This document shows, piece after piece, positions 1-51,145 of a DNA stretch of 64,000 nucleotides; position 1 is the stretch's first letter, and each line of letters begins with the position of its first letter. The DNA comes from Candidatus Daviesbacteria bacterium. Its GTDB lineage: Bacteria; Patescibacteriota; Microgenomatia; Daviesbacterales; UBA10151. The position numbers and the translations under genes are program-made. Below the pieces are notes generated by a model. That model did not search any database. It worked only from the letters and a program-made list of their open reading frames with translations, and was not told where the DNA came from. The stretch spans positions 7,760-71,759 of the forward strand of contig JAQUSJ010000001.1 in assembly GCA_028715175.1 (NCBI GenBank), written 5' to 3'.

Positions 1-88
1 AATGATCCTCACAGTCCACGTGACATATCACCCAAATAGCCACACATTTGCTTGACTTTTATCCCATGAATAGTTAGCATTAAGTCAA

Positions 89-598
89 ATGAATATCCCA
101 AAAAGTAAGTTCCTAATAATTGGAATTGTGGCTGTACTTTTAGTTGGCGGGTGGTTAGTTTACAAAAATTTCCCTAAAAGCCAAGTAGTTCAACAAACTA
201 AACAGGTTGTTCAGGAAAAGGTTTTATCTAAAGATGATTTATTAAAGCAACGGTCTACTGATTATTCTGTTGCATTTCAATATAAAGATTTCAGCAAGGT
301 ATATGATTTTTTAACTCCTGAAGACAAAAAGCTAATTTCCAAAGATGAATATATAAAGATCCAAAAGGAGGCTTCCCAATCCTCCATAAAAGATTTTACC
401 ATTGATTTAGTTGAAGTTAATGGTGACGAAGGTATTGTAAGGACTTCACTGACTTATTGCTTATTTGGTATATGCACTGGTGCGGGACAAAATAATAACA
501 TTCAAACTCAAAAGACAACCTCTAGGTGGATTTTTATAGATGGGCAATGGTATAGACCTGCAATATCTGAAAATAAGGAATTATACGGAATCAAATAA
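89..598 (+). CDS. hypothetical membrane-anchored protein (N-terminal TM helix)
   Basis: ORF of 169 aa with a hydrophobic N-terminal segment (IIGIVAVLLVGGWLV); no recognisable catalytic motif. Confidence 0.4.
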   Translation: MNIPKSKFLIIGIVAVLLVGGWLVYKNFPKSQVVQQTKQVVQEKVLSKDDLLKQRSTDYSVAFQYKDFSKVYDFLTPEDKKLISKDEYIKIQKEASQSSIKDFTIDLVEVNGDEGIVRTSLTYCLFGICTGAGQNNNIQTQKTTSRWIFIDGQWYRPAISENKELYGIK

Positions 599-862
599 AT
601 GGCTAAATTAAAGTGTGATAATTGCGACCACTACAATTTTAGGCGATTTTCTGATTGGGCAATCCTTATGGGTGCTATGTTTGCCTTATTTGGTTTTCTA
701 ATAGGGGTATTATGGTCTCCTGCACTTTCACTCTTCGTAATTGGTATTGGTATCCTAATAGGTAGTTGGTTTTATAGGCGCTCCAAGAAAGATCAGTATC
801 AATGCTTAAATTGTAAAAAGACCTTCTCCATAATTGAAGCTAAAAAATTAAACTCCCTTTAA
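599..862 (+). CDS. small membrane protein with two CxxC pairs (zinc-ribbon-like) flanking TM helices
   Basis: CDNCDH...CLNCKK motifs around a hydrophobic core; start codon abuts the stop of the previous ORF. Confidence 0.4.
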   Translation: MAKLKCDNCDHYNFRRFSDWAILMGAMFALFGFLIGVLWSPALSLFVIGIGILIGSWFYRRSKKDQYQCLNCKKTFSIIEAKKLNSL

Positions 863-925
863 TCCCTATAGTTTAGCCTTGTAATGTATCCCCAATAGAT
901 GCTAAAATAAGGCTGCAAAATGTAG

Positions 926-1858
926 ATGGATATGACAAATTCCAATTTTTTAAGACAAGCAGCTATAAGGAGCTTAGCAGGAGGATTATTTAATGGAACT
1001 ACTGCTAAAGCGCGGATAGCTAATTTTATCCCACCAGACCTCCCTAAACCTACAATTCCTTTACCTACTAACTTTCAATCTTTTCTACCTCCAATTCCTC
1101 AAAAAGTCAGTTCACCCTTGCTACCATTTTTGAAACCTACTGTTAAACCTTTCATAAGGATTGTTAGTCCTGAAGTTGCTTTTATGAATGGGATAAGGAA
1201 GGAAATATCAGATATTGTGAATGATGGCATAGATCAAACTTTAGCCCGAGTGCTTCCCACAATTGATTCACTTGGTTTTGGGGAAGGGAAAATGATTAAA
1301 ACAGCAGTATTGTACATAGATATCCGAGACTCCTCATACATCAGGTTTAATCGTACTCCCAAAGCAGCAGCAAAAATTTATATGAGTTTTCATAGATCAA
1401 TGGTTAAAGCAGGAAAAAGGTATGGTGGGCAAATTGGTGGCTTTGCAGGAGATAGGATCATGGTAATATTCCCTCCAACATCTGTAAACAACAACCGCCA
1501 AAGATCTAATGCTGTAAAAACTGCTATTTTAATGCAGAATGTTTTAGATAAGATTGTTAATCCAATGTTAAACCAAAAATTTGATTATTCACTAACCTGT
1601 GGAATAGGAATAGATTTTGGGGAAATGTTGGTGGTTAAAGCTGGGGCTTACGGAACTGGGAATAATGATTTAATTTGGACTGGCGATCCAGCTAATTTAG
1701 CATCAAAATTAGCTGATGAGGAAAATGGCGGTATCTACATAAGTTCAGCCGTCTATGAATCTATGAGTCAAGATTTAAAGGATAAGCAAATTTGGCTTCA
1801 AAATGTTAACTCAAATGTAAGTAAAAATAGTTATATGTATTTAGACCTATCCAACTAA
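926..1858 (+). CDS. class III nucleotidyl (adenylate/guanylate-type) cyclase domain protein, PycC-like candidate
   Basis: Cyclase-homology-domain motifs: LYIDIRDSS (first metal-binding Asp), FAGDRIMVIF (second Asp), GIGIDFGEMLVV and DLIWTGDPANLASKLAD (matches the YDVWGDTVNxASR transition-state motif). Pro-rich N-terminal region. Confidence 0.6.
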   Translation: MDMTNSNFLRQAAIRSLAGGLFNGTTAKARIANFIPPDLPKPTIPLPTNFQSFLPPIPQKVSSPLLPFLKPTVKPFIRIVSPEVAFMNGIRKEISDIVNDGIDQTLARVLPTIDSLGFGEGKMIKTAVLYIDIRDSSYIRFNRTPKAAAKIYMSFHRSMVKAGKRYGGQIGGFAGDRIMVIFPPTSVNNNRQRSNAVKTAILMQNVLDKIVNPMLNQKFDYSLTCGIGIDFGEMLVVKAGAYGTGNNDLIWTGDPANLASKLADEENGGIYISSAVYESMSQDLKDKQIWLQNVNSNVSKNSYMYLDLSN

Positions 1859-1861
1859 AAT

Positions 1862-2398
1862 ATGAACAGCAATAATAGATTGCTGCCCCAAAAGGATAGG
1901 ATAACAATTGAGGAGGAAAATCTTAAAAGAGTAACCAAGTGGATACAGGCAAGTGATGCCAAAATTGGTACTATACTTGCTTTTCAGGCAGGCCTCATAG
2001 CTTTTTTAGCAACCAAAGGGAATGAAATTGGACAAATATTGACTTTAAACCAAATCAATAACACTTCAGCTCCTCTAGTTTTAGCACTTTTAGTTTTTTT
2101 ATTATCCTCACTGTATTCATTAAAGGAGGCATTCAGTGGACTTTTCCCAGACACTAAAACAAGGACAATCTCCTTGATATTTTTTGGTAGTATTCCAGCA
2201 TTTGGAGTAGATAAATTTAAAAGGAATTTTCAAAATCTTTCCTATAATGACTACGAGGATGAATTATTGTCTCAAATTTATGTAAACTCATCTATAGCCT
2301 CAAAAAAATTTAATCATGTAAAAAATAGCATCAAAGGTCTGTTTGTTGCAGGAATTGCATGGTTAGTTATTCTTATACTTGTTCCAATTTTACTTTAA
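1862..2398 (+). CDS. multi-pass transmembrane protein, candidate effector partner of the upstream cyclase (SLATT/PycTM-like)
   Basis: 178 aa with 3-4 predicted TM helices (IGTILAFQAGLIAFLA, LVLALLVFLLSSLYSL, GLFVAGIAWLVILILVPILL); starts 4 nt after the cyclase stop (operon). Confidence 0.5.
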   Translation: MNSNNRLLPQKDRITIEEENLKRVTKWIQASDAKIGTILAFQAGLIAFLATKGNEIGQILTLNQINNTSAPLVLALLVFLLSSLYSLKEAFSGLFPDTKTRTISLIFFGSIPAFGVDKFKRNFQNLSYNDYEDELLSQIYVNSSIASKKFNHVKNSIKGLFVAGIAWLVILILVPILL

Positions 2399-2403
2399 AT
2401 AAG

Positions 2404-2739
2404 TCAGTCTCTATCAAAAACATCCAACTTGGATTTATCATTTGCTTCCATCCAACATCTACTTAAGAACCCAATAGCTGTCGCAGGTTGACTACTCGGA
2501 ATTTTCCCTGTCCAAACTCCATTTATAGCCTCACCCAACAATTTTTTTAGATCTTTAGTCTTTGTGATCTCCACAGCTTCACCATAAGCCTTAAAAAACC
2601 TTCTATTTAGACCTCCTTTAATGACTGCCTCTCTTTTTTTATCCTGATAAGCTGGATCATGGGTAAAACATAAGCTACTACCCTTGATAGCATTAGCACC
2701 ACACTGTATTCCATTAGGTTTAATTTGACTACATTTCAT
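2404..2739 (-). CDS. hypothetical protein (Cys/His-containing, possible zinc-binding)
   Basis: ORF of 111 aa; no recognised family. Confidence 0.35.
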   Translation of the reverse strand: MKCSQIKPNGIQCGANAIKGSSLCFTHDPAYQDKKREAVIKGGLNRRFFKAYGEAVEITKTKDLKKLLGEAINGVWTGKIPSSQPATAIGFLSRCWMEANDKSKLDVFDRD

Positions 2740-2879
2740 AAGTTACTTATGGGGGGCATACCCCTGTTAGCCTCAAACCAAGTGCAAAAAGTCTCATTTC
2801 CTCCACCTATTTAAGCATAGATATAGGTTCTAACAGCCTCCCGCCCCCGCAACACACTTCGACAAGCTCAGTACAAGCT

Positions 2880-3230
2880 TTACTTAAAAAATACCTTCCA
2901 CCAACCCAACCAATTGGGAAGACGAACTTGAGCTGATTGACTGGCACCCAGTACTGCTTTTAACTTTTCCTCTGGAATAACCACCACAGTCTCCCCTTTT
3001 CTTGAAAAACCCAGCTTGTCTCTGATTTCCTCTTCTATAAATTCCTGTGACTGAATTTGGGCAAGTTCACTCTTTAACTGCTTATTTTTAACCTCCAGCT
3101 TATAAACAGCATCCGCGGCCTCTGATAATCTTTCCCCGGATCTGGTAACCTCAATTATCTGGTTCACAAGATTATAGACAATAAATAAAACTACTAAAAT
3201 AATCAAACCTGACGTGATTTTTCTAATCAT
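2880..3230 (-). CDS. septum formation initiator family protein (FtsB/DivIC-like)
   Basis: N-terminal TM helix followed by a coiled-coil (KNKQLKSELAQIQSQEFIEEEIR), typical of FtsB/DivIC. Confidence 0.55.
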   Translation of the reverse strand: MIRKITSGLIILVVLFIVYNLVNQIIEVTRSGERLSEAADAVYKLEVKNKQLKSELAQIQSQEFIEEEIRDKLGFSRKGETVVVIPEEKLKAVLGASQSAQVRLPNWLGWWKVFFK

Positions 3231-3304
3231 AGTTAATTAAATTTAATCATTCTGCGTATCCTCATCCTTGACAAAGTCAGCCTATAACATTAAAATGTAC
3301 TATT

Positions 3305-4168
3305 ATGGTTTCTTTGCATGATGCACACCAACAATTTATAGATCATCTTAAAGGTAGATCCAGAGCTTCAGCTACTATCTTAGCTTATGGCAAAGATATT
3401 GATCAACTGGTGAGTTTTTTGGAAAACATAGGCAAAACCGATCCCAACCAAGTTGAAACTACAGATTTACAGGCATTTATGCAAAAATTGGCTGATGAAC
3501 ATTATACTGCCAAATCAATCTCACGAAAAACCAATTCCACCAAAACATTTTTCAAGTTTTTAAAAAGTTCTAATTTAATAAATTCTGATCCAACAACAGC
3601 TTTAGAGCATCCCAAATTCGAAAATAAACCACCCAGGATTTTAACCAAATTGGAATATCGGAGCTTACGTGATGCGGCCAGATCCGATACCAGAATATCG
3701 GCAGTCGTAGAATTACTCCTTCAAACTGGTATCAGGATTGGCGAACTTGCCAAACTGCGGGTTGAAGATATTGATTTGAACAATTTAACTCTCCATGTTC
3801 CTCCGTTTGAAGATACCCGCGAAAGAGTGATACCGCTCAATAAATCAGCAGCAGAAGCAGTCAAAAACTATCTTCCGATAAGAGCAAAAACCCCAAATCA
3901 TGCCTTATTCGTTACTAAAACCGGCCGCCCCTTACTTATTAGAAATATCAGGACTGCGATCGACAGATACTTCAGAATTGCCGGTATCAAAGATGCCAAA
4001 CTCAACGATCTCCGGCATACTTGGGTAACATTTCAGCTTCAAGCAGGACTACCAATGACCATGGTATCAAAGTTAGCCGGCCACAAAAGACTTTCAACAA
4101 CCGAAAAATACCTCCAATTCATCCAAGGCCCAACTGCGGAGGGAAAAGTTAAGTTAGAAGAGCTGTAA
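3305..4168 (+). CDS. tyrosine site-specific recombinase (XerC/XerD-integrase family)
   Basis: C-terminal catalytic motifs LRHTWVTFQL...GHKRLSTTEKYLQ (R..HxxR...Y) and an N-terminal SAM-like core-binding domain; 287 aa. Confidence 0.75.
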   Translation: MVSLHDAHQQFIDHLKGRSRASATILAYGKDIDQLVSFLENIGKTDPNQVETTDLQAFMQKLADEHYTAKSISRKTNSTKTFFKFLKSSNLINSDPTTALEHPKFENKPPRILTKLEYRSLRDAARSDTRISAVVELLLQTGIRIGELAKLRVEDIDLNNLTLHVPPFEDTRERVIPLNKSAAEAVKNYLPIRAKTPNHALFVTKTGRPLLIRNIRTAIDRYFRIAGIKDAKLNDLRHTWVTFQLQAGLPMTMVSKLAGHKRLSTTEKYLQFIQGPTAEGKVKLEEL

Positions 4169-4180
4169 AGGAAAAGTTTT

Positions 4181-4603
4181 ATGGTGCAACGATCTCCGGA
4201 AATAACTCTATATCCAAATAGAGTAGTGAATGATCCCCAGATTCTGTATAGAGCAATCCGCTATGAGTTTATGACTCCGCCAAAAATTGGGGCGAGATCG
4301 TTATGCAGAATTTTATTGTGCACAATTACTGAGCGTCCAGACATGGTTGCTCTATATGTGGGTCATCCTTTTCCTTCAGTTGGAACTTTAACCGTCATGA
4401 CAAAGGCAGAAGAAAGAGCAAGAGTAGAAAAAGAAATTAGCGATGGATTAAACAATAAACGAATAGTACCAGCAACTCAAGAATTAATGTTTGCAACTAC
4501 AGGGCAGTTTGTAGAAACCGTCATCGCAGCAGTTAATGATTCTAACTGCCCTCCAGCAGAGAAAAATTCTCTGTTTTCTAGTCTCGCTAAACTACAACCA
4601 TAA
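4181..4603 (+). CDS. hypothetical protein
   Basis: ORF of 140 aa between the recombinase and a tRNA; no recognised motifs. Confidence 0.35.
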   Translation: MVQRSPEITLYPNRVVNDPQILYRAIRYEFMTPPKIGARSLCRILLCTITERPDMVALYVGHPFPSVGTLTVMTKAEERARVEKEISDGLNNKRIVPATQELMFATTGQFVETVIAAVNDSNCPPAEKNSLFSSLAKLQP

Positions 4604-4634
4604 TAGTTTTTTGGTAGCCGGACCAGAATTAAAG

Positions 4635-4705
4635 TAGGCCCGGAAGGAATCGAACCCTCGTCTTGACTGTATAAGAATCAGGTATTACCATTATACGACG
4701 GGCCT
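4635..4705 (-). tRNA. tRNA-Ile (anticodon UAU)
   Basis: Manual fold of the reverse complement: acceptor AGGCCCG/CGGGCCT, D-stem GTAT/ATAC, anticodon stem TGATT/AGTCA with loop CTTATAC (U33, anticodon TAT, A37), T-arm GAGGG-TTCGATT-CCTTC, discriminator A. Confidence 0.7.
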
Positions 4706-4736
4706 AGGCACTAATTGTACCAAAGATTATAATCAC

Positions 4737-4810
4737 TGTCATTCTGGAGGTCGAAGGCCGATAGAATCTTTAAAGATCCTGTCACTCGCTTCGCTCGTTC
4801 CAGGATGACT
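4737..4810. repeat. left flanking repeat block of the GIY-YIG gene (inverted/direct copies of a ~25-nt motif ...tcgctcgttccagGATGAC)
   Basis: gtcattctggaggtcgaaggccgatagaatct at 4737-4770 is the reverse complement of agattctatcg...ctccagaatgac at 5129-5165; a second direct copy tcactcgcttcgctcgttccaggatgac lies at 4782-4810. Confidence 0.4.
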
Positions 4811-4837
4811 ATAGAATAACTCATTCCAGTATGATAA

Positions 4838-5125
4838 TTACAAAATAGCTTGATAAAGATCTTTAAAATTTGGATTTTTGCTTTTAATTAATTCAATTTT
4901 CTTCCGCCTTAATAAATTCTTTATTGTCTTTTCTCTTTTAATAGCATTTTCTGGATCTTGGAATACTTCAAAATAAACTAGCTTGTCTATGTTGTATTTT
5001 TGAGTAAATCCAGCAACTGATTTTTGCTTATGCTCATAAACTCTTCTAATTAAATTATTGGTTATACCAGTATATAAAACAGTGTTTCTGAAGTTTGTCA
5101 GAATATAGATGTAGTATTGTTTCAC
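4838..5125 (-). CDS. GIY-YIG nuclease family protein (free-standing, homing-endonuclease-like)
   Basis: YIYILTN...LYTGITNNLIRRVYEHK GIY-YIG signature; 95 aa. Confidence 0.75.
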   Translation of the reverse strand: MKQYYIYILTNFRNTVLYTGITNNLIRRVYEHKQKSVAGFTQKYNIDKLVYFEVFQDPENAIKREKTIKNLLRRKKIELIKSKNPNFKDLYQAIL

Positions 5126-5128
5126 TAA

Positions 5129-5165
5129 CTAGATTCTATCGCTCCACTTCGTTTCGCTCCAGAAT
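5129..5165. repeat. right flanking repeat of the GIY-YIG gene (inverted copy of the 4737-4770 motif)
   Basis: agattctatcgctccacttcgtttcgctccagaatgac. Confidence 0.4.
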
Positions 5166-5176
5166 GACGCGGTCCC

Positions 5177-7519
5177 CTACAGTCTCGCTCTTGATGCTAT
5201 CTCTCCCTCGACTTGAGTCACATCCCGACCATATTTCAACCTAGATAACTCTCTGATGGCCTGGCCTATTTGGGGATTTAGCATAGCCTTCCATTTTTTC
5301 ATATCTTTAGTTGTATCCAGGGAAAAAGGCACCACCGGCTCACCATTAACAATGGTTTTAATATAAGTATGAGGAGCTTCAATATTTACCAGATCTGCCT
5401 CTGTAAAAGTGGGTGAAAATTCATGCTGCAGGTAATTGGCATCAGTTACACCCACTCTAAACCCGATAATTGTACCAACGTTTCCAAAAACAGCGTTTTT
5501 CAAATCCTCACCTATCTGACCAATAAATTGATTAGCCACAATCAAGTTTAATCTATATTTCCTGGCTTCAGAAAGAATATCCGCAAAAGTATCGGTAGCG
5601 AAATTTTGAAACTCATCAACATAAAGATAAAAATCCCGCCGCTCCTCCATCGGCACATCAGAACGGGACATGGCAGCAGCTAAAATTTTGGGGACTAAAA
5701 TTAATCCCAGGAAATTGGAGTTTTCCTCCCCTATCCGCCCTTTTGAAAGATTCATAATTAAAATCTTTCCTTCATCCATAACTTTCCGCAGGTCAAACGA
5801 GGATTTTGATTGGCCAATAATATTCCTCATCATTTTATTGGTAACAAACCGGCCGAATTTAGACACCGTATAATCCAAAACTTCCGATTTGTGGAAGTCC
5901 GTAGTTTGAGCAATCTGGTCTGTCCAATAACGCCTCACAACCGGATCAGTAACTTTCGGCAGGAGTTCTTTGACAAAGTTGGCATCAGTCATAATTCTGA
6001 CCACCTCCACAAAAGTAGCGCCCGGATCACTCATAGCAGTAAGCATCGCATTCCTAACACCATGTTCAAAACGGGGACCGATAATTCCTGTTTTATTAGG
6101 ATCAAAAAGTTTGTACATGAGTCCTATTATTGAAGCTACGACAAAATGTTTTTGTTCTTCGGCATAAGCTTCCAGCATGTTTAATCCAAATGGCCGGGTC
6201 ATATCAGAGGGATCAAAATAAATTACATCTTCCGCTCTCTGGGGCGGGATCAGTTGCAACATCTCCTCAGCCGCATCTCCGTGGGGATCAATAAAACAGA
6301 GTCCTTTGCCGGCCATAACGTCTTGCAACATTAAAGTTTTAAGTAATTCCGACTTTCCTGTACCGGTCCGGCCGATGATATACATATGCCTTCGCCTGTC
6401 GTCTTCCGAAAGATAGACCGGCCTGTCTACGCCGCGGAAAACAGACCTGCCTAAAAATAAACCGCTGACGGGAATCTTTTCCGGAGCCGGAGCCCGTTTT
6501 GATGAAAGCCAACTGATATAAGGCGTTTCAATGGACTTGTTCGGAAAATGAAAAATAGAGGCCAGTTCATCAGGTGCTAGAACCGAAAGCTTAGTAAATC
6601 TGGGCATATAACGATAAATAAAATCGGTTAAAAACCCTTTTTGGGAATACACTTTGGCGCTGGTGAATGAGTTATATGGTCCGCTAAATTGCTCAAAAGC
6701 TGTTTTGATATTGGCCAGATGAGCTTTGGCAGCTGCTTCGGAAGTGCTGGAAGTGACAATCCGCAAACTGATGTCAAATCCTGATTTGGAAAGCTTACCT
6801 TCAACTGCTTCCAGCTCCTTGGCGTCGGGAAGAGCTTTCGGATTTTTTTCATCTCCCGGCTCTTTTTGTTTTTTCAGCCATTTTTTACCTAAATCCTTCC
6901 AGGTATTACCCGAAGGCGAGATCATAAGCTGTATGGCTATTCCTTCGTTCATTTGCATCTTGGCAAAAGCCGAAGTCAGGGCTGAAAGAGGGTCTGTAGG
7001 CAGGTCGCGGAAAGTTTTAATCGGGAAATAATCCGCATTCTTCAGTTTCAACTGAGTATAAGCTACTTCCCCGGTCTCAGAAAAGATATTGTATTCTGGA
7101 ACCTCTTTAATTTCGGCATCAGGATAAGCGCCATGAATTTGTTTCTCAATTAAATCCTGGTGTGATTTATAACAAGCCACAAAAAATCTGATTGATTCGT
7201 GCAAAGCTACAACCTCAAAAGACAAATGTGGTTGCGGGTTCAAAACACCTAACATCCCTCCGGATTTCCGCAGAGACGAAAGGGTGGCAAAGAGCTGTTC
7301 AATGGCATCTATTTTAACTTCATTCCCTCTCGGGACTTTAATTTGTAAAAGCACAAACTGCAATGACAACTTTTCCCTACCCCTGTACTTAATCCAATCC
7401 ACCAGGTATTTACGCAAAAAAAGAAAAATACCCGCCAGCAAAAGCAGCAGTCCTAAAACTGCAATTGTAGCTATGATTAAACCTGTAAAATCTATTCCGC
7501 TTGCTTGAGTAACTTCCAT
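5177..7519 (-). CDS. type IV secretion coupling-protein-like P-loop ATPase (VirD4/TraG/TraD or DUF87 family)
   Basis: N-terminal TM helix. Walker A YIIGRTGTGKSELLKTL, FIDPHGD, and a Walker B-like LYVDEFQNF...LIVANQ. 780 aa. Confidence 0.5.
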   Translation of the reverse strand: MEVTQASGIDFTGLIIATIAVLGLLLLLAGIFLFLRKYLVDWIKYRGREKLSLQFVLLQIKVPRGNEVKIDAIEQLFATLSSLRKSGGMLGVLNPQPHLSFEVVALHESIRFFVACYKSHQDLIEKQIHGAYPDAEIKEVPEYNIFSETGEVAYTQLKLKNADYFPIKTFRDLPTDPLSALTSAFAKMQMNEGIAIQLMISPSGNTWKDLGKKWLKKQKEPGDEKNPKALPDAKELEAVEGKLSKSGFDISLRIVTSSTSEAAAKAHLANIKTAFEQFSGPYNSFTSAKVYSQKGFLTDFIYRYMPRFTKLSVLAPDELASIFHFPNKSIETPYISWLSSKRAPAPEKIPVSGLFLGRSVFRGVDRPVYLSEDDRRRHMYIIGRTGTGKSELLKTLMLQDVMAGKGLCFIDPHGDAAEEMLQLIPPQRAEDVIYFDPSDMTRPFGLNMLEAYAEEQKHFVVASIIGLMYKLFDPNKTGIIGPRFEHGVRNAMLTAMSDPGATFVEVVRIMTDANFVKELLPKVTDPVVRRYWTDQIAQTTDFHKSEVLDYTVSKFGRFVTNKMMRNIIGQSKSSFDLRKVMDEGKILIMNLSKGRIGEENSNFLGLILVPKILAAAMSRSDVPMEERRDFYLYVDEFQNFATDTFADILSEARKYRLNLIVANQFIGQIGEDLKNAVFGNVGTIIGFRVGVTDANYLQHEFSPTFTEADLVNIEAPHTYIKTIVNGEPVVPFSLDTTKDMKKWKAMLNPQIGQAIRELSRLKYGRDVTQVEGEIASRARL

Positions 7520-7520
7520 A

Positions 7521-7829
7521 TTATGCTGCTTTTTCCATTAACCTCCTCCTGATAAAGTCTATTGCTCTCGGAATTTTGCTTTGTGCAGTACGTATACGGG
7601 CATTATCGCCTGCACCTCCAATCTGTTCATCAACTATGCTTCCTACAACATGTACAGTATTCCCCCAAGCCTCTCCAATCGCTTCCAGTGGAGAGTTATC
7701 GTCCGGGTTCACATCAGCCGCAGTGGCCGGGTGACCAGCTTTAGTTAAATTACCGGCAACTTTTTCATGCAACATCTCTTCTTGATCTTTTGTATACTGT
7801 AAAACTTCTGTAGGAGCAGGTCCTGCCAT
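7521..7829 (-). CDS. hypothetical protein
   Basis: ORF of 102 aa immediately upstream of the T4CP-like gene on the same strand. Confidence 0.3.
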   Translation of the reverse strand: MAGPAPTEVLQYTKDQEEMLHEKVAGNLTKAGHPATAADVNPDDNSPLEAIGEAWGNTVHVVGSIVDEQIGGAGDNARIRTAQSKIPRAIDFIRRRLMEKAA

Positions 7830-7836
7830 AAATGTA

Positions 7837-8766
7837 TTATCTCATATTTGCCAGATATTCTTCGGCTTCAAATGCAGCTTTACAGCCGGCTCCTGCCGCT
7901 GTGATTGCCTGCCTGTATTTATAATCCGAAACATCACCTGCCGCAAAAACCCCAGGAATGCTCGTTTGGGTTTCATCTTTAACCACAATATAACCTTTTT
8001 GATCCAGATCCAATTGACCTTTCAGAAAATCAGTATTGGGCTTATGACCAATTGCAACAAACAATCCGTCTACTGCCAGCTCGCTAATCTCACCTATTTG
8101 GGTATTTTTTAACCTCAAACCAGTAACTTTATCGTTTCCCAATACTTCCTCTACTACTGAATTCCAGATAAAATTGATATTTGGCTTTAACTTAACTAAT
8201 TCCTGCAAGGCCACTTGGGCCCTTAAGCTTTCTCTCCTGTGTATGACAGTAACCTTTGAGCAGAGCTTGGATAAATAGTTTGCTTCACGCAAGGCGGTAT
8301 CTCCTCCACCCACAACTGCCACACTTTTCCCTTTAAAGAAAAAACCGTCGCAAACCGCACAGGCTGATACCCCTTTCCCTTTTAGTTTTTCCTCAGATGG
8401 CAATCCCAGCCATATTGCCGACGCTCCTGTGGCAATAATTAAACTATCAGTCGTCAAACACCGGTTGTCAATCTGAACTACAAATGGTTTTTCCTTAAGA
8501 TCCACAGAAACCACATCTTCGCCGATAAAACGGGTGCCGAACCGTTCGGCCTGCTTGCGCATTTTTGCCATTAATTCGGGACCTTGAATACCTGTTTCAA
8601 ATCCCGGATAATCATCTACATCTGTTGTCTTAATTAACTGTCCCCCTGCCTCCTTTCCAGCAATAACCAGCGGCTTTAAATTACCTCTGGCAGCATAGAT
8701 AGCAGCTGTTAACCCTGCGGGTCCGGAACCGATAATAATTACTTTCTCTACTGGAGACTGTTCCAT
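7837..8766 (-). CDS. trxB: thioredoxin-disulfide reductase
   Basis: FAD site IIIGSGPAGLTAA, redox-active CAVCDG, NADPH site VAVVGGGDTALREA; 309 aa. Confidence 0.9.
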   Translation of the reverse strand: MEQSPVEKVIIIGSGPAGLTAAIYAARGNLKPLVIAGKEAGGQLIKTTDVDDYPGFETGIQGPELMAKMRKQAERFGTRFIGEDVVSVDLKEKPFVVQIDNRCLTTDSLIIATGASAIWLGLPSEEKLKGKGVSACAVCDGFFFKGKSVAVVGGGDTALREANYLSKLCSKVTVIHRRESLRAQVALQELVKLKPNINFIWNSVVEEVLGNDKVTGLRLKNTQIGEISELAVDGLFVAIGHKPNTDFLKGQLDLDQKGYIVVKDETQTSIPGVFAAGDVSDYKYRQAITAAGAGCKAAFEAEEYLANMR

Positions 8767-22420: not shown

Positions 22421-23092
22421 TTAAAAAGTAACTACTTTATCACTCTTCTTTATCAGATTATAGAGTTCTTTCATACCGCTTACCGGACAGGTTTTATCTG
22501 ATTTATCTCGATTGCAGTCATAACATGTCACCTGAATGTTGTTTTCCTCGGAACTTCCTCCTTTTGAAACAGGAATCATGTGATCAAATTCAATTTCATT
22601 ATCCTTTAAAACTTTTCCACATAATTGACATTGATTATTATCTCTCCTTACCACTCTCAACATTACATGGCGAGGGATGTTTCTTCCTACTCTCCTTAAT
22701 TTTTCAGTTTCTGTAAATGGTTCGTTTACAAAAAAAACCGGACATAGATGACCAAAAACAGAGCATGCTTTTTGTAAGTCGTCTTTTGAGTGTTTGATGG
22801 GGTAATTATCTGACTTAAATTCTTTTACTTCTTTTTCAAATATCTTTTTTCTTTCACCCGAATAAGCTTTCTTCTCTAGTTGTTGCCTAAGAAATTTATT
22901 ATGTTCTATTGCTTCTGCTCTAGTAGAACCTGGTAACGGAAACTCTTCAACCGATACACCATAAGGACAATATTTTAATTCCCAACAAGGTTTACATACA
23001 TTTTTTGTTCTCTTTTTCCATTCCTTGTCAACAACTTCATCACTGGTTTTTGGGTTAAACCCTAGAAGGGTTTTAATAAAGGGACTGATCAT
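22421..23092 (-). CDS. HNH endonuclease domain protein
   Basis: CQLCGK...EFDHMIPVSKGGSSEENNIQVTCYDCNRDK HNH motif; extra N-terminal Cys cluster. Confidence 0.7.
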   Translation of the reverse strand: MISPFIKTLLGFNPKTSDEVVDKEWKKRTKNVCKPCWELKYCPYGVSVEEFPLPGSTRAEAIEHNKFLRQQLEKKAYSGERKKIFEKEVKEFKSDNYPIKHSKDDLQKACSVFGHLCPVFFVNEPFTETEKLRRVGRNIPRHVMLRVVRRDNNQCQLCGKVLKDNEIEFDHMIPVSKGGSSEENNIQVTCYDCNRDKSDKTCPVSGMKELYNLIKKSDKVVTF

Positions 23093-23120: not shown

Positions 23121-23382
23121 GAAAATTGAGCTCCCCCGCGTGGATTCGAACCACGAACCTTCTTCTTACAGAACTCCTTCTGTTACCAAAAGGTCTGGAC
23201 TATCTTATGTCGCCTGAGGCGACTCGGGTATATAGTCTCTACACATTTACCCCGCCATGGCGGGGATTTAGCTCGGGATTATCCTTCGATAAACTTAGGA
23301 CTTCCCCGAATTAGCCCGATTTTTCAATCCCGATTACTCGGGAAAGCTGCCTGATTAGACAGGAAGCCGCTCTACCATTGAG
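23121..23382 (-). tRNA. tRNA-Asn (GUU) interrupted by a group I intron; exons 23349-23382 and 23121-23158
   Basis: 5' exon TCCCCTGTAGCTCAATGGTAGAGCGGCTTCCTGT and 3' exon TAAGAAGAAGGTTCGTGGTTCGAATCCACGCGGGGGAG rejoin to give anticodon loop CTGTTAA (GUU). The 5' exon ends in U and the intron ends in G. Confidence 0.7.
23159..23348 (-). ncRNA. group I intron (190 nt, no ORF) within the tRNA-Asn anticodon loop
   Basis: Conserved core elements GTAGAGACTA (R) and AAGATAGTCC (S) forming P7; P/Q-like AATTCGGGGAAG and AATCCCGAGC; hairpins P2 (CCCGAGTAATCGGG), P6a (CCCCGCCATGGCGGGG), P8 (GTCGCCTCAGGCGAC); terminal G. Confidence 0.7.
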
Positions 23383-23460
23383 CTACAGGGGAATTAGGTT
23401 AATGTACAATTAAGAATGTACAATTAATAATTCAAAACATTTAAAAGTGCAATTTTACAA

Positions 23461-23844
23461 TTATCTTTTTGGACTATTCCCTTTAGTCCTCTTAATAATT
23501 GAAGTCAAAATTTTAATGATCTCTTGATTTTCTTCTAAAAGAACTTCTAACCTTGACTTGGAGATTATACCTACTTCTGCAATCATTCTCAACCAATATT
23601 CGGTTTCTCTGGCCTCCTTAAGTGCTACAGTCAAACCATAAATAAATTCTTTTCTCGAACCTGCATTTTGGGCTTCTTCTGTATTAGCTCCAATACTGGT
23701 ACCACACCTGATCAATTGATTCCCAATAGCAATTCCAGCAGAATTTCTAGGTAGGGACATAACCAATTTAACAACCCTCACTCCAAAATTAAATGTTCTC
23801 TCTCGGATGTCAAAAACTTTGTTTTCCGAGCCTGAATTGTACAT
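23461..23844 (-). CDS. four-helix-bundle protein (23S rRNA intervening-sequence protein family)
   Basis: AIGNQLIRCGTSIGANTEEAQNAGSRKEFIYGLTVALKEARETEYWLRM matches the family motif. Confidence 0.7.
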   Translation of the reverse strand: MYNSGSENKVFDIRERTFNFGVRVVKLVMSLPRNSAGIAIGNQLIRCGTSIGANTEEAQNAGSRKEFIYGLTVALKEARETEYWLRMIAEVGIISKSRLEVLLEENQEIIKILTSIIKRTKGNSPKR

Positions 23845-32003: not shown

Positions 32004-32091
32004 GGTGGGGTGCTTGGAGTGGTTTATCAGGTTGGTCTTGAAAACCAATGGCCGAGCAATCGGCCCGTGAGTTCGAATCTCACCCCCACCG
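32004..32091 (+). tRNA. tRNA-Ser (UGA)
   Basis: Acceptor GGTGGGG/CCCCACC, anticodon arm TTGGT-CTTGAAA-ACCAA, long variable arm TGGCCGAGCAATCGGCCC. Confidence 0.85.
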
Positions 32092-32114
32092 CCCTTTGGT
32101 ATAATATCCCATAA

Positions 32115-44433: not shown

Positions 44434-47400
44434 TTAAAGAGCCATCTTATCAAATAACCAACCAGCCCAATCGCGGCCATCATACTTTCTAACCCATTGA
44501 CCATTTTCAGCTACAAACCAGTAATAAGGCTTCCTAAGGAATGAGTAGACTTCTGCTTCAGCCGGATATGCCTGCGCTCCGCCTCCGGGCCCCTTATCCA
44601 GCAACCAATCTACGTAAGCGTTCCAAAACATTCTTGCAATATGCCTGGAAGTCCCGGTATTCTTTTCCTTCTCCAGGGCTATAGCCGGATTAAACCTACC
44701 ATTGGGTAAAAAGACATCTGTTTTTCTTAAATCTAAAGCTCCACCTGCATTTCTCTGATCCGAATACATTGTCCTAACTTTTCTTAATGTATCCCATACT
44801 CTACCAAAATTTTCCAGTAGTATATGAAATACTTCCACTTCTCCCTCAGGCTTCTGAAGAGCTTCAACTAGTTTCTCTCTGATCTTTAACACATCTTCAG
44901 AATTATTGGTTGGCTTCATTAATAAACCTTCATGATGATCCCCTGTCTTAGGATCAGTACCACCAATCAAAGCAAACCATAATATAGTACTGCTATCCAT
45001 CAGATTAATAAATTTAGTGATAGCAAATTGACTGGCTATTCTTTGGTTTGTTAATTCATGAATCTTATCATCCATCATTGAAACCGCTCCCATTACCCCA
45101 TGACGCCCTAAATTACCAGCCATGGTATCTGCGTGCATAGGAGCTACAGAGAGTGCTGCCTTAAGTCTTCTAGCCCATCTGTCAGGCATTTTGGCAGTCA
45201 AAGCTTCAATTTGCAAAGAAAATCTAAAATCACCCCCAAGATCTTCAGTATAATAACCAGTACCCATATGTTCCTTATTACCATCATTAGGCAAAGATCG
45301 CTCCTTGAAAACATTTCTTACCCCAACCCAACCTAAAAGCGACTCTTCAACCGCAGCATCAAAAACAATCCCTTCCAAAGTCATTTGTTCCCCAGCAAAC
45401 TCTTTGACCCGGCACAAAGTGGGATCCAACGTCAGAAGTAAACCAGCAAAAATATCAGCATCTTCTGGCCGTAACTTTCCATCCCTGATTTGTCTGGCTT
45501 GGTCAATTACATAATCAGGCAACAAAGTATGCGTATTGTTGCTTTGATAAGCCCAATAAGTGTGAGCTGTATGCAGGGCTAACCAACTGTCTGCGGCAGT
45601 CGGGACATCCAAATCAACTTCTTCAACAAAAACAAATGTTCCGTCACCCCGTTCTGTTAAAATATATTTAGGATTGTCTTCAAGACCATAATGCAGGATA
45701 AGGTTACCAAGATCTATAAGTTTACGATCCTTTCCTCCGGGTTTATCATAAATAATGAGCTTACCGCTTGTTGCATCAAAATCGCTCTCGCCTAAACCAA
45801 CAGGTTTACCACTTTTATCGTAACCAAAGATAGGCTGACTGTTTTCATCAAAAGCAATAATAGGTAGCCCATTTTGGCTGTAGCCGAAAACATGCGGCCT
45901 TTTTAACTTCATCTGGCTAAGAGCAATTGGCTGAAGTTCAATCATACCGGACTTTAATTCACCATTCTCATCAAAATAATCTAAGTAATTAGCTGCATAA
46001 TCAGCATCAGAAAATTTTGCCGCAAATCCTTTTTCATAAATGGCATCTACCGCCCTTTCAAGTGCTTTCTGTACCATGGCTTCTCTGTATCTAGCTCTAA
46101 AATTAGGGTACCTATACTGATCATTTTCATCCTTACCCTCTACTCTTTCCTTAAACCCTTCTGTTTGCCAAATAGGTGAGTCGTCTCTATATTTCATCCG
46201 TATCCAATTTACAACAGCCATACCGGCTTTTTGAGCCAGATGGGCTGGGATATGATCAAATGTAAGATTTTCTCTGTCCGCAGGATTCAGGCTGTTATAT
46301 AGAGCTTGTTCTGTAGGAGGAAAAGAATCCAGTCGCCTACCTTTAGCTATCTCATCCAAAATCCATCCTTTATGCTGATTCTCGGTAAAACCTTTTCTTC
46401 TCTGCGCAGGCGACCATTGGCTGATATCAGGATCTGAAGCTTTTTGCTCCTTATGATTGTCCTGCCGGAATTTCAAATACTCCCGGACATATTGATTTTT
46501 ACCAACGAAATAAACTGCTCCACCTCTGATAGTTGTTTCGTGAGTTACGCCCTGCATTTGCATAGCTACATCAAAGCTAGTTTCTGAATCGGCATAATAT
46601 TTATCGTAAAACCTCTTATCTTGTCTTTTAATCCGTTTTAACTTCACTAATTTATCAATCAATTTTTCTTTTCTCCCTAAAACTACCGTCCCTGTCCTAA
46701 CTTCCTGCCTAAGTTCATCCATTAGGGTTTGGATTCTGCCTAACTTAACAGAATCCCGTAATTTTCTGGGGAAATTCTCGGGGAGTTTATCAATATCCAA
46801 ACCTTTGTTGCGAACATATTCCTGATAGTTATTTCTGTGAGCATCGCTATTATCAAACCCATCAAACAGGGCCTTCAAAGCCTCGGCAGATTGATGAATA
46901 CCTATCCGCTCCTGATTAGTCTTCGGGTGTACTCTTTGCGCTAAATAAAATTCCCTGTCATCGTCTTCCGCAAAGCTGTCTAAATCATCATCATTCTCTT
47001 TCAGATGTTTATCAAGCTGTTCCAAGCGTACTGCCCTTTTGTAACGCAATTCTGGATCCGAAACAAGATCTACATCACGCCAGTCATAGTCTTTTAAGAC
47101 AATGCCCATGCCTCTTTCTTTTTGTATTCCATAAATTATTGCCCTGATATACTCCTGCACCTGAGTGCGATCTCCAAATTGTCCTCTTGACCCTTGGGCG
47201 TTTAAGGCAAATTCAATCATAGCCAAATTATCAAAACAAAAGGTATGAAATCCAACTCCGCATTCCTCGCCTGAGCGCAGAGCTCTAACCCATCTTTGAG
47301 GTCCTTCGTGCATAGCCATTGCCATTGCACCCTGCTTAGCCCCTTCTTTGTTATAATGCTCGCTATTGTAAAAAGTGTGCCAGAGAAAAGCCCGTCCTTC

Positions 47401-48804
47401 AAATTCCTGCCTCAGCTCTTCCACAAATCCAGAGGTCATCTGATCTGACCCAAGATCCTTATTCGCTTGCTCTAAAGCCAACTCTTCTCCCCTTGCGACC
47501 AACACTTGTTTGAAATTCATTAGGTTTTGCATTAGCTCATTTGGGTCATACCCCAAAGCTTTATTTTTGAGCATTTGCAGAAAAGATTCTTTGGCAACAC
47601 GGAATTGGGCAGGAGTCCTAGCCTTTATCGTATAATAATTCGGATAACCGCCGTATGGCTCCCAATAAAGTTCTGTTATCTCGCCTTCCTCTTCTTCGCC
47701 TGGGATATGCCATTCGCCTTCTTGATAAGAACCTGGATCTTCACCATTAATTATTTTCCTAAGTTTTCCCCGCGTCCACAGAATATATGCTGTTTCAAGA
47801 TCCATTAACGGGGGATTAACTTCAGGATCTTTTGCTTTACCAAGCAGAGCATCCTCAATGGCCTGCCGGGCTTCTGGTTCCCTCTGCATCAATAAAGCCA
47901 AAGCCTGCTGCTTCGAATAGGTTCTATTCCTAAAACCTAAAAATATTGCATTATAAACCTCATCAACCCCCTTTAGTAACCCTTTTCTATGCGCTTCTTT
48001 AAAATATTTTAGTAAATCATTTTCTACTTGTTCTCTTTCGGGAATTGAAAGATGCAAATTTAGATACTTGGCAGTTAAAGATCCTAAATCCTCGCCTCTT
48101 TTTTCAATATCAGTAAAATCTTCAGGTTCAGGTTCATCTTGCTTTTTTGCCTTTTCAACACCTTTGGCAATTCTTTCTTCATAGGCCTTTTTTATTGCAT
48201 CATGCAGCGTCTGACCGGGCTCACGCTTGACCTTGTGCTCTTCCTCAGAATCAAAATGGTCCTGCAAATATCTGTCTTTTTGTTCGGTTTTCTCAACAAA
48301 AGCAGTTAATCTTCTACACAATTCATAGAGCTTTGGACCATTTTCAGCATCCCATCTAACTTCATAAGGCAACTCCGTTTCCATGTAGGTAATCTGTTCC
48401 ACTAGCCATCTGCCTCTTTCCGGACTAGTCTCCCACTCTGGCCCACTAGTTGGCTCTGGAACTATGGGTCCCTCATCTTCTGCACCTCCTGCTACTTCTA
48501 ACATCCTTGCCATCTCTTCACCTGTTCCTGGATCGATAAAAATCCTATAACCACCCTTTTGTTTTACCGAGTATTCTTCTACTCTTTTAGAGTCAAACGC
48601 CGGTGAGATATGCCAAGATCTTTGAAGATCTTGCTTACCAGATGGCTGAGGTAAAGTTTGTCCCTCAGCTTCGGCTGATCCTGCGCCCTGCAAGGGAACG
48701 GCACCTTCTATATTCTGTGGAGGCCCAGGAGGAATACTCGCTCCTGAGGAGCCTCCCCCCTCTACTGGTGTTCCTTCTGCCATATTTCTTTCTATATTTG
48801 CCAT
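44434..48804 (-). CDS. giant hypothetical protein (1456 aa), no recognised domains
   Basis: Uninterrupted 4.4 kb ORF on the opposite strand, embedded in the T4SS-like locus; Gly/Pro-rich N-terminus; acidic. Confidence 0.5.
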   Translation of the reverse strand: MANIERNMAEGTPVEGGGSSGASIPPGPPQNIEGAVPLQGAGSAEAEGQTLPQPSGKQDLQRSWHISPAFDSKRVEEYSVKQKGGYRIFIDPGTGEEMARMLEVAGGAEDEGPIVPEPTSGPEWETSPERGRWLVEQITYMETELPYEVRWDAENGPKLYELCRRLTAFVEKTEQKDRYLQDHFDSEEEHKVKREPGQTLHDAIKKAYEERIAKGVEKAKKQDEPEPEDFTDIEKRGEDLGSLTAKYLNLHLSIPEREQVENDLLKYFKEAHRKGLLKGVDEVYNAIFLGFRNRTYSKQQALALLMQREPEARQAIEDALLGKAKDPEVNPPLMDLETAYILWTRGKLRKIINGEDPGSYQEGEWHIPGEEEEGEITELYWEPYGGYPNYYTIKARTPAQFRVAKESFLQMLKNKALGYDPNELMQNLMNFKQVLVARGEELALEQANKDLGSDQMTSGFVEELRQEFEGRAFLWHTFYNSEHYNKEGAKQGAMAMAMHEGPQRWVRALRSGEECGVGFHTFCFDNLAMIEFALNAQGSRGQFGDRTQVQEYIRAIIYGIQKERGMGIVLKDYDWRDVDLVSDPELRYKRAVRLEQLDKHLKENDDDLDSFAEDDDREFYLAQRVHPKTNQERIGIHQSAEALKALFDGFDNSDAHRNNYQEYVRNKGLDIDKLPENFPRKLRDSVKLGRIQTLMDELRQEVRTGTVVLGRKEKLIDKLVKLKRIKRQDKRFYDKYYADSETSFDVAMQMQGVTHETTIRGGAVYFVGKNQYVREYLKFRQDNHKEQKASDPDISQWSPAQRRKGFTENQHKGWILDEIAKGRRLDSFPPTEQALYNSLNPADRENLTFDHIPAHLAQKAGMAVVNWIRMKYRDDSPIWQTEGFKERVEGKDENDQYRYPNFRARYREAMVQKALERAVDAIYEKGFAAKFSDADYAANYLDYFDENGELKSGMIELQPIALSQMKLKRPHVFGYSQNGLPIIAFDENSQPIFGYDKSGKPVGLGESDFDATSGKLIIYDKPGGKDRKLIDLGNLILHYGLEDNPKYILTERGDGTFVFVEEVDLDVPTAADSWLALHTAHTYWAYQSNNTHTLLPDYVIDQARQIRDGKLRPEDADIFAGLLLTLDPTLCRVKEFAGEQMTLEGIVFDAAVEESLLGWVGVRNVFKERSLPNDGNKEHMGTGYYTEDLGGDFRFSLQIEALTAKMPDRWARRLKAALSVAPMHADTMAGNLGRHGVMGAVSMMDDKIHELTNQRIASQFAITKFINLMDSSTILWFALIGGTDPKTGDHHEGLLMKPTNNSEDVLKIREKLVEALQKPEGEVEVFHILLENFGRVWDTLRKVRTMYSDQRNAGGALDLRKTDVFLPNGRFNPAIALEKEKNTGTSRHIARMFWNAYVDWLLDKGPGGGAQAYPAEAEVYSFLRKPYYWFVAENGQWVRKYDGRDWAGWLFDKMAL

Positions 48805-49019: not shown

Positions 49020-49466
49020 TCAGGACAATCTCTTATTTAAATCTATACTTCTTAGATATTGCAAAAAGTTTGCAGGAGCCATCACCATTATATTAAAATC
49101 CTCTTTTATTTTATCTATCTTAAAATGTTTGGTGTTATAAGAAATTAGATAATTCGCTTTAGCTTTTTTTGCTCCCGCTATAATGTGGGCATCGTCTTGA
49201 TCAACAATATATTCTGAATATTTTACTTTAATTTCTTTTAACTGTTGCTTTAGATATACCTTTTTGAAGCTTCTTTTAAGAAGATTTTTAAGCTCAGTCT
49301 GATCAAGCCCTAATCTATCAGCTACTTCTATTAATTCTTTCTGAGATACATTTGAAATATATAATTTAAGATTAGTTATGCTACTGAGCAAAAGATTAGC
49401 TGCCCCTGATGAAGAAATTAACGAAGAGATGACCACATCTGAGTCAATGAATACCTTTTTAAACAT
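49020..49466 (-). CDS. PIN-domain protein (VapC-like toxin)
   Basis: VFIDSDVVISSL...YLISYNTKHF; acidic residues in PIN positions. Confidence 0.65.
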   Translation of the reverse strand: MFKKVFIDSDVVISSLISSSGAANLLLSSITNLKLYISNVSQKELIEVADRLGLDQTELKNLLKRSFKKVYLKQQLKEIKVKYSEYIVDQDDAHIIAGAKKAKANYLISYNTKHFKIDKIKEDFNIMVMAPANFLQYLRSIDLNKRLS

Positions 49467-49787: not shown

Positions 49788-50696
49788 CTATCCGCATCTT
49801 TTAACTGTCCTACAGCTAGGACAGCTCTGGCCGGCCCTGACAATACAATTTATTGCTTCACCACAAACAGGACAATTCCTACAAAAATCAGGATCTTTAG
49901 TATTTACCCCATCACCCACTACTAAAGAATTCTCTGAAAATACCTGAAAAGCAGTCTTAGGGGGGCAGCTACCAGAGTATGACCCCAACACTTGCTTAAT
50001 AGCCATTTGCGCTTCATCTGTAGAATATAGCCCTGGAATAGAGAAAAACTCTTTTTGGACCATTGTAGCCTGTCTAAGAACCTCTTCTTTCAGTCTTCTA
50101 TCTTCTCCAATTCTGACCATTTCCCATACAGCAGGCGCATCAATTAACTCTTCTAAGGCATGGATCCAAAAATTGCCATGGGTCTTTAAAATCAGCGGGG
50201 TTGCCCTGACCTGATCAAAATTGAAAAAATTTGGCTGGTTCTGGCTAAACTGCGCCAAACCACGGGCAAATTCCAGAGACTGATTCTCATCAAAATCAAA
50301 TAAAATAGCCCGGTTAAATAATCTTTTGAGACCATTCTTATACTCTATCTCGCTGACAATTATTTTTAAGACAGAATATGCTCCAAGATAGGGAGGGCTA
50401 ACCCAGACAATTACTCCCTCATTACGACTGACTGCCCACTCTTCCATAGCAACTACCGCTCTATATTCCAACTGACCCAGGTGACTAGTTTTATCTTCAA
50501 TTGTATCTTTGACCCTGCAATGAGCGGTAGGAGAAAATAACTCTCCGTTTGATCTAACTTCAAAATAATAAGGGTCAGGAACTCTGTGAGTTTCGAGGCT
50601 GTAAGAAGCTATCTCTTCAACAACTTGCTTTTCAGGTTTACCTTGCCAATTTTTGATAAAAGAAGTTATTTCTGGTCGTTCTAGTGATACTGACAT
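49788..50696 (-). CDS. hypothetical protein with C-terminal Cys-rich zinc ribbon
   Basis: CRNCPVCGEAINCIVRAGQSCPSCRTVKRCG at the C-terminus. Confidence 0.35.
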   Translation of the reverse strand: MSVSLERPEITSFIKNWQGKPEKQVVEEIASYSLETHRVPDPYYFEVRSNGELFSPTAHCRVKDTIEDKTSHLGQLEYRAVVAMEEWAVSRNEGVIVWVSPPYLGAYSVLKIIVSEIEYKNGLKRLFNRAILFDFDENQSLEFARGLAQFSQNQPNFFNFDQVRATPLILKTHGNFWIHALEELIDAPAVWEMVRIGEDRRLKEEVLRQATMVQKEFFSIPGLYSTDEAQMAIKQVLGSYSGSCPPKTAFQVFSENSLVVGDGVNTKDPDFCRNCPVCGEAINCIVRAGQSCPSCRTVKRCG

Positions 50697-50756
50697 ATTG
50701 CTCCTGCTCGGGATAGAATCTCGCCGTTAGGCGAAGTGGTCGGTCTCCTGACTTAA

Positions 50757-50838
50757 TCAGCTCTCAGCTTTCAGTCTTCAGCTATCAGACTAAAAATTCT
50801 TGTCTGACAACTGATGACCGACGACTGATGACTGAAAT
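50757..50838. repeat. dispersed imperfect-palindrome repeat element, divergent copy C
   Basis: tcagctctcagctttcagtcttcagctatcagac-taaaaattcttg-gtctgacaactgatgaccgacgactgatgactgaaatc. Confidence 0.45.
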
Positions 50839-51145
50839 CACAGTTGCGGCACAGTCCAGGATTCTCACCTGATTCCCTTTTTAAGAGCGAAGCTCGCAAG
50901 CTCCGCTTATTTCTTCTCCCGCCAGAGGCGGGATGAAATACCACAACGTTAGAATAACAACTCAAAACTCAAATGTCAAAACTCAAAACTAAAACTTAAA
51001 ATCTTAAAATTTTAAAACCTTTGAGATTTAAGATGCAGATTTGCGATTTGAGATCTAAGATTTGAGATTAATATGGATTGCCCCATAATGATCTGTTTTG
51101 TGACTCTTGCCATCATTTTTTTCACGATGTATATAGATAGTATCT

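Follow-up and report, generated by a model that had tools for sequence, protein, structure and literature searches.

The window described here is a stretch of 64,000 nucleotides from a metagenome-assembled genome (MAG) of Candidatus Daviesbacteria (contig JAQUSJ010000001.1, positions 7,760 to 71,759). Close to its beginning, two adjacent open reading frames (ORFs) on the forward strand encode a class III nucleotidyl cyclase (926..1858, 310 residues as a mechanical ORF) and a small membrane protein (1862..2398, 178 residues), with 3 nt between the TAA stop of the first and the ATG of the second. We propose that the two genes form a Pycsar operon, made of the cyclase PycC and the transmembrane (TM) effector PycTM, carried as cargo by a small serine-integrase element in the Daviesbacteria chromosome. 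We estimate the probability of this reading at about 0.85. An earlier note on the same DNA had suggested a Pycsar-like module of a cyclase and a TM effector in a candidate-phyla host. The coordinates that it gave for the two ORFs are correct, and the host does belong to the Candidate Phyla Radiation (CPR/Patescibacteria). The module itself is recovered by profile searches and by comparison of genomes: PADLOC recognizes the first protein as PycC (1.7e-47) and the second as PycTM (1.7e-30), and the two genes occur together in 69 of 82 related loci. Every check proposed in the earlier note that could be run came out favourably. All the defining features of Pycsar that can be tested computationally are present at the locus.

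The cyclase domain spans residues 87-310 (1184..1858, +), as delineated with PADLOC, PDB 7R65 and AlphaFold2 (AF2)/Foldseek. Thirteen PADLOC models match the protein, and all of them are PycC models. The best is PDLC02367, which aligns with residues 86-302 over profile positions 3-217 of 226. PDLC00766 comes second (1.7e-38) and covers the same residues. In the PDB, the closest sequence is 7R65 (5e-14), which is BcPycC, a clade B cUMP synthase. It is followed, in order, by the canonical cyclases CyaB and Cya2 and by AnPycC (8JSZ), PaPycC (6YII) and EaPycC (8JSF). The AF2 model of the cyclase domain (residues 82-306) is confident, with a pLDDT of ~90 or above in most 10-residue blocks, and its top PDB match in Foldseek is also 7R65 (3.7e-13). 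By sequence and by fold, the closest structure is therefore BcPycC and not a sensor-linked Cya enzyme, an outcome that the earlier note had named as speaking against the module. Compared with PADLOC, a BcPycC fragment gives its best matches with PDLC00766 and PDLC02367. That the two enzymes share their two best models indicates that the window cyclase is a divergent member of the BcPycC-type subfamily.

The catalytic residues of a PycC, two metal-binding aspartates and a transition-state asparagine followed by an arginine or a lysine, are intact. The three motifs pointed out previously are all present. IDIRDSS carries the metal-binding D132, GDRIMVIF carries the metal-binding D176, and DLIWTGDPANLASKLAD carries the transition-state pair N257 and K261. 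In an alignment of 15 sequences (the window protein and 14 homologues), D132, D176 and N257 are invariant. The position of K261 is occupied by a lysine or an arginine in most relatives and by a lysine in BcPycC. An N-terminal helix ahead of the cyclase core is a hallmark of PycC (PMC11224242). In the AF2 monomer model this helix is formed by residues 82-99, before the first strand, with a pLDDT of ~93. Scans of the protein with Pfam and NCBIfam returned nothing significant; as previously noted, no sensor or regulatory domain (GAF, PAS, HAMP, CHASE or TM receptor) is seen in them.

The second protein belongs to the PycTM family. It matches Pfam PF18967 (PycTM, "Pycsar effector protein", formerly DUF5706) with 40.5 bits, above the gathering score of 27.2, and aligns with positions 3-153 of the 154 of the PADLOC PycTM profile. 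It also matches the "2TM Effector" models that PADLOC holds for CBASS (6e-26), the PycTM models scoring best. Hydropathy points to helices at residues ~33-51, 69-86 and 156-178, with a weak extra segment at 101-114. The predicted topology has three TM helices, with the N-terminus and the 87-155 loop both on the cytoplasmic side, and the distribution of lysines and arginines fits this prediction. No enzymatic, transporter or housekeeping family matched the protein. Its description as a small multi-TM protein devoid of enzymatic domain and its assignment as a PycTM-type effector thus hold. The resemblance to SLATT effectors, also evoked in the earlier note, does not: no SLATT family was found, the Pfam scan at E<=1 returning PycTM only.

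Related loci were collected by a scan of one genome per GTDB species, built from the 8 closest sequences. This yielded 68 loci distributed in Patescibacteria, Saccharibacteria, Bacteroidota, Bacillota, Proteobacteria and one Asgard MAG, and four further loci came from IMG/VR viral contigs. Conservation of the pair, one of the checks suggested beforehand, is borne out. Among the 82 loci having a cyclase ORF, the 69 that keep the pair have a PycTM homologue on the same strand within 150 nt, 3 have an adjacent PycTM on the opposite strand and 6 have a flank too short to judge. Only 3 of the 82 have adequate flanks and no PycTM. All closer relatives (37-75% identity) retain PycTM directly downstream of the cyclase. 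The neighbouring genes vary between loci; one pair lies with enolase and RNase J, others with helix-turn-helix (HTH), primase-like or recombinase genes. Such variation is as expected for a mobile defence module.

Variants of the two-gene arrangement were seen among the relatives. In locus L005, a 174-residue multi-TM ORF (7401..7925) directly follows PycTM and may be a second effector paralogue. L046 (3860..6609) and ~25 similar Bacillota loci have the order long cyclase, PycTM, second short cyclase. The long cyclase has ~476 residues with a C-terminal extension of ~135 residues, and the short one has ~243. The pocket of the second cyclase differs (F..N-x-N-x-D-C-x-W), and this enzyme matches PDLC02368 best in PADLOC. 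These three-gene loci agree with a remark on multiple cyclases per locus in a recent preprint (10.64898/2026.08.12.744502). Several proteins of ~350-358 residues (P0032, P0036, P0041 and others) carry a leucine-rich-repeat region fused N-terminally to a PycC-like cyclase and could represent a sensor-fused variant; one cluster of them has as many as 161 member sequences. Finally, the Asgard MAG (L072, Promethearchaeum sp.) contains a PycC-like cyclase fragment (4073..4627) with no adjacent PycTM. It could reflect contamination, transfer or a different partner.

The operon is probably cargo of an integrative element of ~6 kb. Positions 1..2994 of the window are 100% identical to positions 3291..6284 of a metagenomic contig, L001, which runs on leftwards for 3.3 kb beyond the window. 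In this extension lie the genes of an HTH_3 regulator and of a 590-residue large serine recombinase that matches the phage integrase family phrog_95 (7e-63), along with two small ORFs. The GC content is 31-38% over positions 1..2400 of the window and 40-45% further along. A serine integrase and an HTH regulator on L001, together with the low GC, suggest that the pair travels on a small integrative element.

Other ORFs lie close to the operon. A 169-residue ORF (89..598, +) and an 87-residue Zn-ribbon/2-TM ORF (599..862, +), the latter kept only in the closest relative, L078, are probably co-travelling cargo. On the other side, a convergent 111-residue ORF (2404..2739, -), also present in L001, is the terminal gene of the island or else the first one beyond it; it has no match in Pfam, PADLOC, NCBIfam or PHROGs. 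We considered these three ORFs as possible extra components of the system. They are retained solely in near-identical or 73%-identical relatives, and therefore are not conserved components of Pycsar. The housekeeping gene DivIC (2880..3230) and a XerC/D-like recombinase gene (3305..4168) come next. The latter and a tRNA-Ile gene (4634..4705, -) were rejected as borders of the island because DivIC intervenes before the module, which makes the serine integrase of L001 the likelier mobility gene. The tRNA-Ile has a TAT anticodon, an uncommon bacterial way to read AUA, and adjoins a GIY-YIG ORF (4838..5125) and the XerC/D-like recombinase.

Proteins identical to the pair are deposited at NCBI as MDD5415387.1 ("adenylate/guanylate cyclase domain-containing protein") and MDD5415388.1 ("DUF5706 domain-containing protein"), from a 743,708-bp contig of the Daviesbacteria MAG. 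In the 73%-identical relative L078, a 1-nt deletion removes the first ATG of the cyclase ORF and leaves the second one intact. Translation of the cyclase thus probably starts at the ATG at position 932 (MTNSN..., 308 residues), in agreement with the NCBI call. Residue numbers given here refer to the 310-residue ORF. A promoter-like site (879..908, +) with TTGTAA, an 18-nt spacer, TAAAAT and an upstream TG is located just 5' of the cyclase start. It comes from a consensus scan alone. The bases around it are identical in L078; the scan as a whole found fewer sites than in shuffled controls, so the site is only weakly indicated.

Systems pairing PycC with PycTM were reportedly described by Tal et al. 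in 2021 (Cell 184:5728, as cited in PMC11224242). As in these systems, the window cyclase has a small PycTM effector next to it in one operon. The characterized cyclase closest to the window enzyme is the clade B BcPycC of Burkholderia cepacia LK29. Both are single-domain class III cyclases with an N-terminal helix, 44 residues between the metal-binding aspartates, an Asn-x3-Lys motif and the tyrosine and arginine of the UTP pocket. However, the identity to BcPycC-type sequences is only ~22-27%. The window enzyme also has an alanine in place of Asp94 and an extra 85-residue disordered Pro-rich N-terminus, and its host is a Patescibacteria MAG. The partner of BcPycC is reportedly a TIR effector, not a TM effector. 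The clade D AnPycC-AnPycTM system of Anabaena (8JSZ) and the clade E EaPycC/EcPycC enzymes (cCMP, 8JSF) have the same fold and follow the same cyclase and PycTM logic. For AnPycsar, the pairing of a cyclase with PycTM has been validated by experiment (PMC11224242). Nevertheless, AnPycC and EaPycC are far weaker sequence matches of the window cyclase (1.6e-3 and 0.028, respectively). The Cys3-His zinc ribbon of clade D is absent from it, and the CTP-recognizing R142 and Q144 of EaPycC are replaced by G172 and A174.

Two other families share features with the locus. Pucsar (PucC with PucTM or PucTIR) is a cGMP-based offshoot of Pycsar described in an August 2026 preprint (10.64898/2026.08.12.744502). 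Like the present pair, it associates a stand-alone cyclase with a 3-TM effector, of the "pJV1-spdB3 family". In contrast to PucC, the window cyclase lacks the guanine-recognizing glutamate, has another spacing of the metal-binding aspartates and keeps the tyrosine and arginine of the pyrimidine pocket. PucC was compared through its described residues, and the determinants come from the modelled complex of the preprint, which makes this a soft test. CBASS systems with 2-TM effectors also combine a nucleotide second messenger with a small TM effector. However, the synthase of the window is a class III cyclase and not a CD-NTase; no CD-NTase (SMODS) match was found among the PADLOC results.

The product of the window cyclase is most likely cUMP, an assignment that we hold at somewhat better than even odds. 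Residues that select the base have been described in several relatives. BcPycC converts UTP into cUMP and uses Y50, D94 and R97; AnPycC catalyses the same reaction with F60, K104 and F109, its metal-binding aspartates being D62 and D106; EaPycC makes cCMP from CTP with F100, R142 and Q144 and binds the metal with D102 and D146 (PMC11224242). PfPucC makes cGMP from GTP with E118 and K195, the metal-binding aspartates being D70 and D122 (10.64898/2026.08.12.744502). The base pocket of the window cyclase was mapped with a HMMER alignment to BcPycC, through which we also located the metal-binding D52 and D96 of that enzyme, and with an alignment of 134 sequences. Facing Y50, D94 and R97 of BcPycC are Y130, A174 and R177. 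Hence, two of the three residues recognizing UTP match. Four residues before the second metal-binding aspartate, where purine cyclases have a lysine or a glutamate and EaPycC has an arginine, the window cyclase has G172. The spacing of 44 is found in BcPycC, AnPycC and EaPycC; it is 52 in PfPucC. Two of three UTP residues and this spacing, with no residues of the cCMP or cGMP type, make cUMP the best guess.

Upstream of the catalytic domain, the cyclase carries a Pro-rich extension (residues 3-86, 932..1183, +) with an "LPPI" motif. The Pro-rich N-terminal segment had been noticed earlier, and 14 prolines are indeed counted in the first 90 residues of the ORF. The extension is predicted to be disordered (AF2 pLDDT 44-57), and no model of Pfam, PADLOC or NCBIfam covers residues 1-85. 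Among 18 full-length members of the subclade (37-75% identity), 16 have a tail of 47-90 residues. Beyond an "LPPI"-type motif and, where the tail meets the domain, a hydrophobic-K/R-I motif, these tails have little in common. In nearly all other relatives, the cyclase domain begins at residue 3-10 and the tail is absent. The subclade is rare: an exhaustive search of 1.84 billion representatives gave 3,430 matches at E<=1e-3, of which only 20 reach E<=1e-30. Of the best 150 matches, ~17 align into the tail. Its named members are the Daviesbacteria protein of the window, a Saccharibacteria protein (L010) and a protein of a "Patescibacteria group" MAG (L009), the gene of which is truncated at the end of its contig. 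These three cases are suggestive of a Patescibacteria-specific subclade.

One may ask whether the tail is part of the protein at all. Translation could start at M87, the upstream 85 codons being open by chance. In relative P0003, the gene caller began the protein at the methionine equivalent to M87, and the lack of a family model and the predicted disorder of residues 1-85 would agree with this idea. Against it, the frame of L078 is open throughout the tail, where the sole internal indel is of 9 nt and in-frame. The ratio of nonsynonymous to synonymous substitution rates between the window and L078 is 0.21 for the tail, close to 0.15 for the cyclase domain, and the subclade ORFs extend upstream and share LPPI in 16 of 18 cases. 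These three observations led us to reject an ORF-calling artefact, a start at M87 being very unlikely, and the substitution pattern and the in-frame indel argue that the Pro-rich tail is genuinely coding. As to its function, we would only tentatively suggest, as a proposal more doubtful than not, that this lineage-specific tail (~60-90 residues with the short linear motif LPPI) either holds the cyclase inactive as long as no phage infects the cell or acts as the sensor of infection. Docking to a protein of the host or of the phage, or cleavage by a phage protease, would be conceivable ways.

From characterized Pycsar and Pucsar systems (PMC11224242), we infer the following course of events, including the identity of the nucleotide, the trigger by the phage, the disruption of the membrane and any role of the tail. 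Phage infection would activate PycC, a dimeric class III cyclase. The enzyme would then cyclize its NTP substrate, most probably UTP, and the resulting 3',5'-cyclic mononucleotide would most probably be cUMP. Binding of this signal to the cytoplasmic parts of the three-TM PycTM would lead the effector to oligomerise in the membrane and to wreck its integrity. The related EcPucTM forms a hexamer that encloses a central channel (10.64898/2026.08.12.744502). The infected cell would arrest or die before completion of the phage cycle, as in abortive infection.

Several observations weigh against the proposed identification or some part of it. The general cyclase model of Pfam, PF00211, does not match the first protein at E<=1, though it matches relatives; membership of the PycC family thus rests on the PADLOC, PDB and fold evidence. 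Ala174 at the position of BcPycC D94 leaves real uncertainty about the nucleotide produced. The AF2 model of PycTM, computed from a 4-sequence alignment, has a pLDDT of 48 and a pTM of 0.25, so that the architecture of the effector is deduced from profile matches and hydropathy. The presence of the integrase in the same genome is deduced from the 2,994-nt identical overlap with L001, a separate contig. Lastly, the defensive function of this locus, as of any Pycsar in Patescibacteria, is a prediction from homology, in a lineage devoid of cultured hosts and phages.

The alternatives differ in which part of the proposal they replace. The same architecture may use a purine or other signal, as a Pucsar-like cGMP system or another non-pyrimidine variant. 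In a sister clade of Pycsar-1, cyclases that form cGMP indeed go together with effectors of this 3-TM family (10.64898/2026.08.12.744502), and the alanine facing BcPycC Asp94 could enlarge the base pocket. We regard this variant as unlikely, since G172 stands where PfPucC has Glu118 and adenylyl cyclases have a lysine, and the spacing of the metal-binding aspartates is like that of pyrimidine PycC enzymes. Moreover, Y130 and R177, whose counterparts in BcPycC occlude guanine in the model of the preprint, are retained, and PADLOC ranks highest the models that also fit BcPycC best. A more radical alternative would be housekeeping cAMP/cGMP signalling, with an ordinary class III cyclase lying beside an unrelated small membrane protein. 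The NCBI product name of the cyclase would fit, and canonical CyaB and Cya2 also come up in the sequence and fold searches, their scores being weaker or similar. Yet the PADLOC matches are PycC models in 13 of 13 cases, the partner is a PycTM above the Pfam cut-off, and the pairing recurs across phyla and on viral contigs. The lack of a sensor domain, the glycine at the Lys/Glu position of the purine-specifying pairs (Lys/Asp or Glu/Cys) and the patchy, mobile-element-linked distribution, with so few close matches among 1.84 billion representatives, point in the same direction. Ordinary signalling is extremely improbable.

The module might also work chiefly for the mobile element, by stabilising it post-segregationally or by excluding competing elements, instead of defending the host against phages. 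The compact island of ~6 kb with its adjoining serine integrase and HTH repressor is in line with such a role, as are the relatives found on viral contigs and beside recombinase or primase-like genes. However, location on a mobile element is normal for bona fide defence systems, and the pair of L005 has housekeeping genes as neighbours and no genes of an element around it. We consider a mainly element-serving role quite unlikely, and it would be compatible with the explanation that we favour, a Pycsar operon of PycC and PycTM brought by a serine-integrase element.

The remainder of the window contains several features apart from the operon. A group I intron (Rfam RF00028, 23176..23373) lies within a tRNA gene (23130..23392, -). 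In its intron mode, ARAGORN reports a tRNA-Asp(GTC) with a 175-nt intron, the anticodon hinging on the exact splice sites. An HNH endonuclease gene (22421..23092, -) is located directly downstream and a "23S rRNA-intervening sequence protein" gene (23461..23844, -) upstream. A cobalamin riboswitch (50721..50916, -, 51 bits) precedes a 302-residue ORF (49788..50696, -) having no Pfam match; it occurs in a CPR genome of presumably minimal metabolism. At 32004..32093 (+), Rfam proposes a tRNA-Sec with 48.7 bits against a threshold of 47 and ARAGORN a tRNA-Ser(TGA). The gene is probably not a selenocysteine tRNA. A 780-residue membrane-anchored ATPase (5177..7519, -) gives weak matches with DUF87/HerA, TrwB and TraG-D_C. 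It resembles the coupling proteins of type IV secretion systems such as those reported in Patescibacteria. Finally, a 1,456-residue ORF (44434..48804, -) has no Pfam match at 1e-5 and is followed by a PIN-domain ORF (49020..49466).

No paper discussing Pycsar in Patescibacteria was found in the searchable literature, whose coverage leaves out most subscription journals. The sole co-mention of the two terms is in a cold-seep virome atlas whose title and abstract deal with other matters. The system is detected by standard PADLOC models and is thus not a new design; the practical value of the finding is modest. The ultra-small CPR host, the serine-integrase vehicle and the conserved Pro-rich tail are mildly new aspects. 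The locus means that the very small genome of a CPR bacterium harbours a cyclic-nucleotide abortive-infection system that is complete, apparently intact and brought in by a mobile element, and that public annotation hides under generic names. In ultra-small episymbionts, where abortive infection is unstudied, a regulatory or sensing role of the tail would, if true, provide a handle on the still-unknown trigger of Pycsar.

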